64,000 bases of DNA, from the NCBI RefSeq assembly GCF_055900595.2, contig NZ_CM148325.1; one strand, given 5' to 3'. Position numbers: made by a program. Below, piece after piece: positions 61,101 to 61,982 of the stretch (position 1 is the stretch's first letter; the number at the start of each line of letters is the position of its first letter).

Positions 61101-61982
61101 CTGGCCCAACCGCCAATGAAGTTAAATAAAGCATAACCAACGAAAAATGCGCTGAAAATCATCCCCATTTCAGCAGCATTAAAGCCTAACTCTTTTTCGA
61201 TAAGTGGGGCCGTAATCGATAATGCAGAACGATCCATATAGTTCAGCATGTAAACTATAAACAGAAGAAAAACGATAATCCACCCCATGGTTTTTCTTTT
61301 CATGATATTTCCTCTTATTGTGGTCTAGCGGCCTGACCACAATATTTAATATTTATTTTTAGATCATCATAAAAAGAAGGGTTTTGTGATCAATATAACA
61401 AAAATGGGATAACCAGTGTTCAATAACAATTATAATCACTCTCTAGTTGTATGATTTTATTTACTCTATTTTGAGTGATTAATATGTAAGACAGTATGAC
61501 TTTCCGGGAGAGAGGCTCTGATCAACGTGGTAGCTTTAACGCGGGTTAGCACCAAGGCCAGTACCGCATAGGTTAGCTGGCGCTAGCCGATGTGGCTGAC
61601 AAATGGGAGCTTCGTCAGTTCAAAGAAACGCCGGAACAGCGCTTCGCGCTGGAGCAGGAACATCTGCAGCCGTTACCGGATACAGACTTCGATACCAGTT
61701 ACTTCGACATCCGCCATGTGTCCTGGGACCCGCTATAACGAAGTTGGAGGTAATCAGTACAGCGTTCCCGAAATGCTGTGTGGTCAGCCAGTCTCGATAC
61801 GAATATCGCTGAACGATGAGTTGCGGATCTACAGTAATGAGAAACTGGTGGCCTCACATCGCCTCTGCTCAGTGTCGTCTGGCTAGCAGATAGTACCGGA
61901 ACCTCACGCCCCGCTCTGGCAGCAGATCAGTCAGGTGGAACATCGACCACTGAGTGCCTATGAGGAGCTGTTGTGATGCATG

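Follow-up and report, generated by a model that had tools for sequence, protein, structure and literature searches.

The window, a stretch of 64,000 nucleotides of Escherichia coli DNA (NCBI RefSeq assembly GCF_055900595.2, contig NZ_CM148325.1), contains an island region adjoining tRNA-Arg and yfdC. In this region a gene for a transporter of the major facilitator superfamily (MFS) and a gene for a Zn-dependent sugar-acid dehydrogenase form an operon on the minus strand. An inverted repeat lies directly upstream of the MFS gene, and a gene for a GntR regulator of the FadR subfamily is encoded at some distance on the plus strand (Table 1). Comparison with related loci indicates that the repeat is quite likely the operator of the MFS/Zn-dehydrogenase operon, with the product of this regulator gene as the predicted repressor.

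An inverted-repeat search and direct reading of the sequence confirmed that the MFS leader contains a perfect 10-N9-10 inverted repeat, as the original prediction had stated. Its arms (61316-61325 and 61335-61344) have 10 nt each, are 100% complementary and are separated by 9 nt, giving TATTGTGGTC-N9-GACCACAATA with the spacer AGGCCGCTA. On the minus strand the whole 29 bp read TATTGTGGTCAGGCCGCTAGACCACAATA, then AGAGGAAATATC and the ATG (61303), in the order ...AAATATTAAA TATTGTGGTC AGGCCGCTA GACCACAATA AGAGGAAATATC ATG. The 3' end of the repeat is 12 nt from the MFS ATG, and the site occupies positions 13-41 nt upstream of it. The repeat had been placed between the promoter and the ribosome binding site; it does abut the ribosome binding site, but on the promoter side the placement is less certain, since the left arm itself may hold a -10 element (TATTGT).

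Table 1. Features of the cassette and its control region, with positions in the window
Feature	Position	Strand	Basis
Inverted repeat, whole predicted operator, TATT GTGGTC A GGCCGC TA GACCAC AATA	61316..61344	-	Sequence; near-invariance in Escherichia/Citrobacter/Salmonella
Hexamer H2 GTGGTC, left half of FadR-type core	61335..61340	-	Core GTGGTC-A-GGCCRC recurs in all related loci
Hexamer H3 GGCCGC, degenerate right half of core, inside the former spacer	61328..61333	-	9-mer GGTCAGGCC kept in six clades
Hexamer H4 GACCAC, in H3 orientation, 8 bp downstream of H3	61320..61325	-	Forms perfect long repeat with H2; reverse-hexamer score peak at +8
Shine-Dalgarno (SD) region AGAGGAA of the MFS gene, 1 nt past the repeat	61309..61315	-	Read from sequence
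Candidate -10 TATTGT, overlapping left arm (promoter model A)	61339..61344	-	TATTGTGG invariant in two clades
Alternative candidate -10 AAAAAT, TAAAAT in Citrobacter (promoter model B)	61355..61360	-	In conserved block TGATCTnAAAATA
CRP-like box TGTTATATTGATCACA	61385..61400	-	1 mismatch to TGTGA-N6-TCACA; inference
MFS transporter, anion:cation symporter (ACS)/D-galactonate transporter type, 429 aa, first operon gene	60014..61303	-	TIGR00893, 329 bits, below curated cut-off
Zn-dependent sugar-acid dehydrogenase, 341 aa, start overlapping MFS end by 29 nt	59017..60042	-	NF007489, 243 bits
Terminator-like hairpin ACGCGTAGTG-N4-CACTACGCGT and T-run, 3' of the dehydrogenase gene	58966..58989		Ancestrally between convergent dehydrogenase and GntR genes
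FadR-subfamily GntR regulator (winged helix-turn-helix and FCD), predicted cognate repressor, displaced by insertion 47464-58960	46772..47443	+	NCBIfam FadR-subfamily models, homology, synteny

First-order Markov simulations of the window served as the chance model; counted were perfect inverted repeats whose arms have 10 bp or more and whose spacer does not exceed 20 bp. About 1.9 such repeats are expected per 64 kb and about 12 distinct ones are present in the real window; taken alone, the repeat is not beyond chance. Since perfect 10-bp repeats are not rare, its significance must come from comparison with other sequences. The case for its non-randomness rests on conservation, namely on its invariance in the close clade and on the recurrence of its core in distant loci. 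The window was searched for another copy of the site, which might serve autoregulation if upstream of the regulator gene, and none was found: the full pattern matches once in the window, and no further match to the core with up to two mismatches occurs there. The 8-mer TTGTGGTC has eight matches, two of them in the repeat and two in a palindrome at yfdX; the four isolated ones left are close to the number expected by chance (about two) and were not taken as sites.

Seven upstream regions were aligned (E. coli chromosome, E. coli plasmid, four Citrobacter species and Salmonella diarizonae). The block AAATATTGTGGTCAGGCCGCTAGACCACAATAAGAGGA, spacer included, is essentially invariant in this alignment, and the sequences become unalignable beyond about -100. 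The same 29-bp block is also carried by S. bongori and S. enterica subsp. enterica. Conservation therefore spans E. coli, four Citrobacter species and three Salmonella lineages (subsp. diarizonae, subsp. enterica, S. bongori), with heavily diverged sequence upstream. Only two changes were seen in the block among these close relatives: an uncompensated T to C in the plasmid lineage, one position in from the outer end of the right arm, and the sole spacer polymorphism, a G to A (CCGC to CCAC) in Citrobacter wls619 (L006) and in an E. coli-type gut contig (L106). An additional plasmid search yielded no new sequence variants. Absence of the repeat upstream of orthologous cassettes had been named beforehand as a reason to drop the prediction; the repeat is conserved in these promoters, and the prediction stands on this point.

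A proposed reading as three phased hexamers, and recurrence in distant loci

Sequence comparison suggests that the site is best read as three GTGGYC-type hexamers at 8-bp phase rather than as two arms. The perfect 10-bp repeat would then be made up of the first (GTGGTC) and the third (GACCAC) hexamer with their ATTG flanks. The spacer G to A seen in two lineages (L006, L106) turns the middle hexamer into the family consensus GGCCAC. The dyad axis common to the whole family is the A at 61334, which is off the centre of the 10-N9-10 repeat. GTGGTC-A-GGCCGC (61328-61340) has the FadR/PdhR spacing TGG-N5-CC, with an imperfect right half (CCG; CCA in L006 and L106), and the outer arms with their N9 do not have the canonical hexamer-N1-hexamer spacing. 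The original prediction had compared the TGGTC/GACCA core with half-sites of FadR-subfamily GntR regulators and had called the spacing atypical. The comparison is supported by the convergent GTGGTC-A-GGCCGC core; the spacing is indeed atypical for the outer arms, but becomes canonical once GGCCGC is read as a third, degenerate half-site, because the anomaly disappears when the "spacer" holds the middle half-site. GGCCGC and GACCAC, in the same orientation and 8 bp apart, show the fixed hexamer spacing of the NanR type.

Distant loci were gathered by homology of the regulator, independently of the site, and all of them carry a related element in the regulatory region. In L026 (regulator 48% identical; uxuA-MFS-dehydrogenase-SDR-gntR) the site is TTGGCA TG GCGGTC A GGCCAA, and in L027 (45%; MFS-dehydrogenase-gntR) it is TTGGTC A GGCCAG TA GGCCAC TT AGCCAG TA GGCCAA. 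L029 (49%; TRAP transporter) has GCGGTC A GGCCAC CA TGCCAT AA GACCGC. A divergent gntR is found in Paludibacterium (L030; 42%, opposite a kdgK-uxuA operon), where the site is GTGGTC GT GTGGCC CA GTGGTC A GGCCAC, and in Erwinia (L031; 37%, opposite MFS-uxuA), with CTGGCC CA GTGGTC A GGCCGC TG GACCAG. In L022-L025, a clade with regulators of about 52% identity, the site reads TATT GTGGnT C AaCCAC Tr AACCnn. The 9-mer GGTCAGGCC is present in the regulatory regions of L026, L027, L029, L030 and L031, whose regulators are 49-37% identical, and the Erwinia site equals that of the window at 21 of 22 positions (GTGGTCAGGCCGCTrGACCA). Across about 340 kb of loci, GTGGTCAGGCCAC with up to one mismatch occurs only at these regulatory positions.

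The common denominator of the distant sites is the convergent pair GTGGTC-A-GGCCRC with one base between the halves, extended by further hexamers of matching orientation in strict 8-bp steps. Nine independent protein-anchored sites were scored for hexamers, anchored on the core centre. The mean reverse-hexamer match to the consensus is 5.4/6 at offset 0 and 4.0/6 at +8, with a background of about 1.7; smaller peaks are present at -8 (forward, 2.9) and +16 (2.6). The number of hexamers at the 8-bp period varies: L027 has five, up to four of them in a row in the same orientation, and L029 and L030 have four each. The outer arms of L029 are 17 nt apart, that is, 9 + 8.

In the reverse test, metagenome contigs were scanned with GTGGTCAGGCCRCNNGRCCA alone; at least 120 stretches matched, and 80 of them were taken as loci. 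Among the matches listed, a GntR/FCD homologue starts within 400 bp of the motif in 21 of the 80 loci, and 14 of these 21 are divergent gntR/uxuA pairs; most such pairs carry the four-hexamer site GTGGCC CA GTGGTC A GGCCGC TG GRCCAA, at about 47-50 bp from the uxuA start in most cases and at 87 bp in L094. Some of the adjoining regulators in these same matches are only 30-34% identical to the queries, and many matches lie in GC-rich DNA with no relevant neighbour. The background density of GntR/FCD genes is roughly estimated at below 1%, and the observed linkage is far above it. In the divergent gntR/uxuA loci the orientation of the asymmetric core towards the catabolic gene is reversed, which is expected for recognition of duplex DNA.

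The displaced regulator

On E. coli plasmids such as pYLMB10a the gene order is MFS, dehydrogenase, a convergent gene for a 223-aa FadR/GntR regulator, a GGDEF protein and a LysE transporter, and the plasmid regulator is 92% identical to the regulator encoded in the window. Comparison of the plasmid module with the window by BLAST gave two blocks: plasmid 8001-10522 corresponds to window 61485-58961 (93.4%), and plasmid 10517-11813 to window 47463-46171 (90.4%). Their breakpoints adjoin each other at the terminator-like hairpin that separates the convergent genes, showing that about 11.5 kb were inserted between regulator and operon in the window. This insertion contains remnants of IS4, IS3 and IS30 and an autotransporter gene. 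The regulator gene, the dehydrogenase gene and the MFS gene are contiguous, with the regulator convergent to the other two, in E. coli plasmids, in S. diarizonae (regulator 74% identical), in S. bongori, in S. enterica subsp. enterica and in a metagenomic relative with a 52%-identical regulator. The regulator in the window is thus the ancestral neighbour of the cassette. It had been named as a candidate binder of the repeat, and the adjacency of its close homologue on the plasmid together with the abutting breakpoints argues for this choice.

The S. diarizonae orthologue of the regulator has matches to the Pfam domains GntR and FCD. The winged helix-turn-helix (wHTH) is strikingly conserved across the regulators (ERLYQKIAN...LPPERELAKQLGVSRsSLREALIVLEISGW) and the FCD domain diverges; the recognition helix GVSRsSLREAL is almost invariant across the regulators of the related loci. 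In the L022-L025 clade, the three aligned regulators (P0042, P0045, P0046) have SLRDGL in place of SLREAL. Site and helix covary: regulators with SLREAL are found with GGTCAGGCC, the SLRDGL regulators of L022-L025 with the variant core GTGGnTCAaCCAC (GGnTCAaCC). The closest solved relatives of the regulator are PdhR (8e-13), FadR (2e-9) and NanR (7e-8); since these are only distant, the protein is taken to be an uncharacterized member of the FadR subfamily. Its conserved N-terminal wHTH block starts no later than about residue 9 of 223, too early for an N-terminal extension to precede it.

The 11.5-kb insertion starts exactly at the ancestral convergent terminator. Just within the inserted DNA past the regulator gene, at 47532-47561, lies a 12-bp perfect inverted repeat with a T-run (AATCCGGAAACG-N6-CGTTTCCGGATT), probably a terminator of the inserted element.

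Promoter models, predicted operator and rival explanations

The CRP-like box is located exactly 44 nt upstream of the GTGG in the Escherichia, Citrobacter and Salmonella loci as well as in L022-L025, where it is a better CRP match (TGTGAcaacgaTCACT). Two promoter models were considered. In model A the candidate -10 element overlaps the left arm, and its distance to the centre of the CRP-like box is 51 bp, versus 52 bp for a class I site at -61.5. The box would thus be centred near -60.5, one base off the classical class I position, and the site would extend from about -12 to +17, covering the -10 element and the start site. In model B transcription would start near 61348 and the repeat would lie at about +5 to +33. 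Repressors classically act from either position. Clearer promoters are found in L026 (TTGAGG-N17-TATATT) and L029 (TTGACT-N18-TAAAAT); in these loci the hexamer array begins at or just past the -10 element, and CRP-like boxes are present near -60 and -71.5. A sigma-70 scan proposed a promoter TTGATC-N16-TATGAT (61393-61366), which was not relied on because it is not conserved in Citrobacter or Salmonella. Native regulatory sequence beyond about -180 has been lost in the window, since the homology to the plasmid cassette ends at 61485; a degraded remnant of an IS21-family element (Mu transposase domain) follows (61486-61900). The promoter blocks also contain two conserved GATC (Dam) sites, one in TTGATCAC and one in the ATGATCT of the window, which is GTGATCT in Citrobacter.

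We infer binding and direction of regulation as follows. Without inducer, repressor dimers would occupy the three-hexamer site, which is predicted either to overlap the -10 element and the start site or to fall within the first ~35 transcribed bases; at either position the bound repressor would block RNA polymerase. A sugar-acid effector would bind the FCD domain and thereby release the repressor. The best guess for this effector is L-gulonate or a product of its oxidation.

An mRNA leader hairpin had been regarded as equally possible. Acting mainly as such a hairpin at the 5' end of the MFS mRNA, the repeat would stabilize the transcript or modulate ribosome access to the SD sequence. The RNA of the repeat folds with -14.9 kcal/mol (z-score -4.9 versus shuffled sequences), the hairpin directly abuts the SD sequence (1 nt), and in model B the whole repeat would be transcribed; in model A, however, the start would lie inside the repeat, and in the predicted fold the SD sequence is not sequestered. 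Some of the distant sites also fold well (L029, -14.4 kcal/mol; L027, -13.6 kcal/mol), but their pairings differ, as do those of L025 (-9.7 kcal/mol) and L026 (-7.5 kcal/mol), and L022 and L023 have no hairpin or only a weak one (-4.2 kcal/mol; z-scores of -0.1 and -1.9) although the motif is kept. Pairing in the register of the window falls to 3-8 of 10 in the distant sites, whereas the inner six pairs about the core centre are kept at 4-6 of 6 (G-T counted). The loop is as conserved as the stem, the sole stem change (that of the plasmid lineage) is uncompensated, and in the divergent gntR/uxuA loci the duplex is flipped relative to the regulated gene. A search of Rfam gave no match at the gathering score; with E-values up to 10 it returned only sub-threshold eukaryotic snoRNA and miRNA models. 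Since the motif is conserved in the distant loci and the hairpin is not, a role mainly as an RNA hairpin is unlikely, and the two possibilities can no longer be given equal weight. A secondary role of the 5' hairpin may exist in the enterobacterial clade under model B.

A different protein might also bind the site, for instance a chromosomal regulator of the UxuR/ExuR type or another member of the GntR family. In Erwinia (L031) and Paludibacterium (L030) a nearly identical core is adjoined by regulators with only 37-42% identity to the protein in the window, and in the window the regulator is physically apart from the operon. Yet orthologues of the regulator are closely linked to the site in every intact locus, the wHTH hardly differs between E. 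coli and Salmonella, in contrast to the diverging effector domain, and the lgoR-lgoD and lgoT regions of K-12 contain none of these hexamers. The known UxuR/ExuR consensus, of the TTGGTATACCAA type, differs from the site. Binding by a different regulator is thus very unlikely. It is highly improbable that the repeat is a chance palindrome or a terminator-like remnant without function: chance alone would give one or two such repeats in 64 kb, and a T-rich stretch follows the stem on the plus strand, but the repeat is invariant in three genera although its flanks have diverged, and no gene ends upstream of it on either strand. An intrinsic terminator was rejected as well; a terminator scan of 61200-61700 found none, and AGAGGAAAT comes after the stem on the mRNA strand.

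Several points weigh against the repeat being the operator of this regulator in the form proposed. A single FadR-type dimer would require neither the third hexamer nor the perfect 10-bp symmetry, and one or more dimers may bind. The scan pattern fixed hexamers 2 to 4 and cannot show that hexamer 4 is needed. The close clade contains no variation able to separate selection at the DNA level from selection at the RNA level. In the window the regulator gene lies 11.5 kb from its predicted target, with no second site found upstream of it, and the regulator has no N-terminal extension of the kind that mediates NanR cooperativity. With these points included, we consider the prediction of a conserved operator for an uncharacterized repressor, with a modestly unusual multi-hexamer layout, to be solid at the level of sequence comparison. 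An operator bound by the FadR-subfamily repressor would be an ordinary bacterial gene switch, that is, routine regulatory biology without a new principle, and would provide the uncharacterized regulator and the mobile sugar-acid cassette with a concrete predicted operator and a probable pathway. The motif GTGGTCAGGCCRC could be used for regulon prediction in many genomes.

Related operators, probable pathway and mobility of the cassette

The FadR/PdhR operators (1HW2/1H9T; PdhR 9JPJ is the best solved relative) share with the site the convergent TGG/CCA hexamers one base apart (TGG-N5-CC), a regulator with wHTH and FCD domains, and, by either promoter model, the location at the promoter of a catabolic operon. 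The ATTG flank of the half-site resembles the PdhR/UxuR-type AATTGGT. In contrast to those systems, the regulator in the window is distant from both PdhR and FadR, the half-site is GTGGTC instead of TTGGTA or CTGGTC, the core has a degenerate right half, and an extra in-phase hexamer produces the long 10-N9-10 repeat, which is lacking in the FadR/PdhR operators.

NanR of E. coli is a FadR-subfamily repressor that acts on phased hexamers, (GGTATA)3, downstream of the polymerase site, where three dimers assemble cooperatively; this cooperativity requires a 32-residue N-terminal extension (PMC8012715). Subfamily and several hexamers at fixed short spacing are common to both systems, as would be an operator downstream of the polymerase binding site and the occupation of a consensus hexamer by one DNA-binding domain of a dimer and of a poorer sequence by the other. 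However, the NanR repeats are all direct whereas the core in the window is a convergent pair, and the hexamer sequences are unrelated. Since the regulator in the window lacks the 32-residue extension, the site was not assigned to the NanR type.

The divergent gntR/uxuA loci (Erwinia, Pantoea, soil bacteria; L031, L033-L111) have a near-identical core, GTGGTC-A-GGCCGC-TG-GACCA, and the same wHTH recognition helix, with the site just upstream of the ribosome binding site of the first catabolic gene and in a sugar-acid context. They differ in having four hexamers (two forward, two reverse) symmetric about the central A, where the window has three and an AT-rich stretch replaces the first. Their regulator is divergent from the operon rather than convergent, and the regulated gene is uxuA, with or without MFS, instead of MFS and Zn-dehydrogenase. 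The L-galactonate system LgoR/LgoT/LgoD of K-12 likewise combines a GntR-family regulator, an ACS-type MFS transporter and a Zn-dependent hexonate dehydrogenase. The proteins are only 28%, 28% and 36% identical (regulator, transporter, dehydrogenase), and the lgo intergenic regions of K-12 contain no GTGGYC hexamers; LgoR/LgoT/LgoD was therefore rejected as a different system. A relation to Salmonella SEN1433-6 was also discarded, as that gene set is different (two dehydrogenases and a dehydratase). A literature search on STM1541-3 gave nothing useful, and one for the motif string returned eukaryotic primer sequences only, with no published description of this operator among the papers searched.

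The best solved relative of the dehydrogenase is RspB (4ILK). The Citrobacter operon is extended by genes for UxuA and a UxuB-like reductase; other relatives have UxuA and an SDR. This gene context points to a hexonate that would be oxidized to D-fructuronate and then converted via mannonate to 2-keto-3-deoxygluconate (KDG). By pathway knowledge and similarity to RspB, L-gulonate would fit this route best. More tentatively, the three-hexamer site might be one instance of a widespread and apparently undescribed operator architecture of a UxuR-like FadR-subfamily clade, consisting of GTGGTC-A-GGCCRC and one to three hexamers on either side at strict 8-bp phase, and the cassette the so far unassigned enterobacterial module for L-gulonate uptake and oxidation feeding UxuB and UxuA; we hold this to be possible, but rather doubtful. 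If such an architecture is indeed widespread, more than one dimer would be assembled without an N-terminal extension of the NanR type.

Other relatives have a TRAP transporter in place of the MFS gene. These versions (L022, L024, L025) keep the CRP-like box and the predicted operator. In L022 (~8180-8290), 15 codons of the MFS start (MKINTMLWILLYCCF*) survive behind these two elements, some 300 bp ahead of dctP. Here the transporter was exchanged behind an unchanged control region. The cassette is a clear case of a predicted operator that stays with its promoter while the transporter is swapped (MFS for TRAP) or insertions move the regulator gene away.

Between the stop codon of yfdX and frc, positions 15630-15666 hold a 15-bp perfect inverted repeat, TTTTATGACCACAAT-N7-ATTGTGGTCATAAAA. 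The 10-mer ATTGTGGTCA is common to this palindrome and the MFS leader repeat, but the hexamers of the palindrome are everted (outward) and it was judged unrelated. The yfdX-frc DNA around it belongs to the core genome (5424 of 5426 E. coli genomes have it), and the palindrome is therefore probably the terminator of yfdX.

The cassette is distributed over pathogenicity-island DNA of E. coli, P1-like phage-plasmids, and the chromosomes of Salmonella and Citrobacter. On plasmids with P1-like phage genes (c1 repressor, icd, antirepressor), the module MFS-dehydrogenase-GntR-GGDEF-LysE is located between two copies of IS1A (L002 6307-14352, pYLMB10a), an arrangement that looks like a composite transposon.

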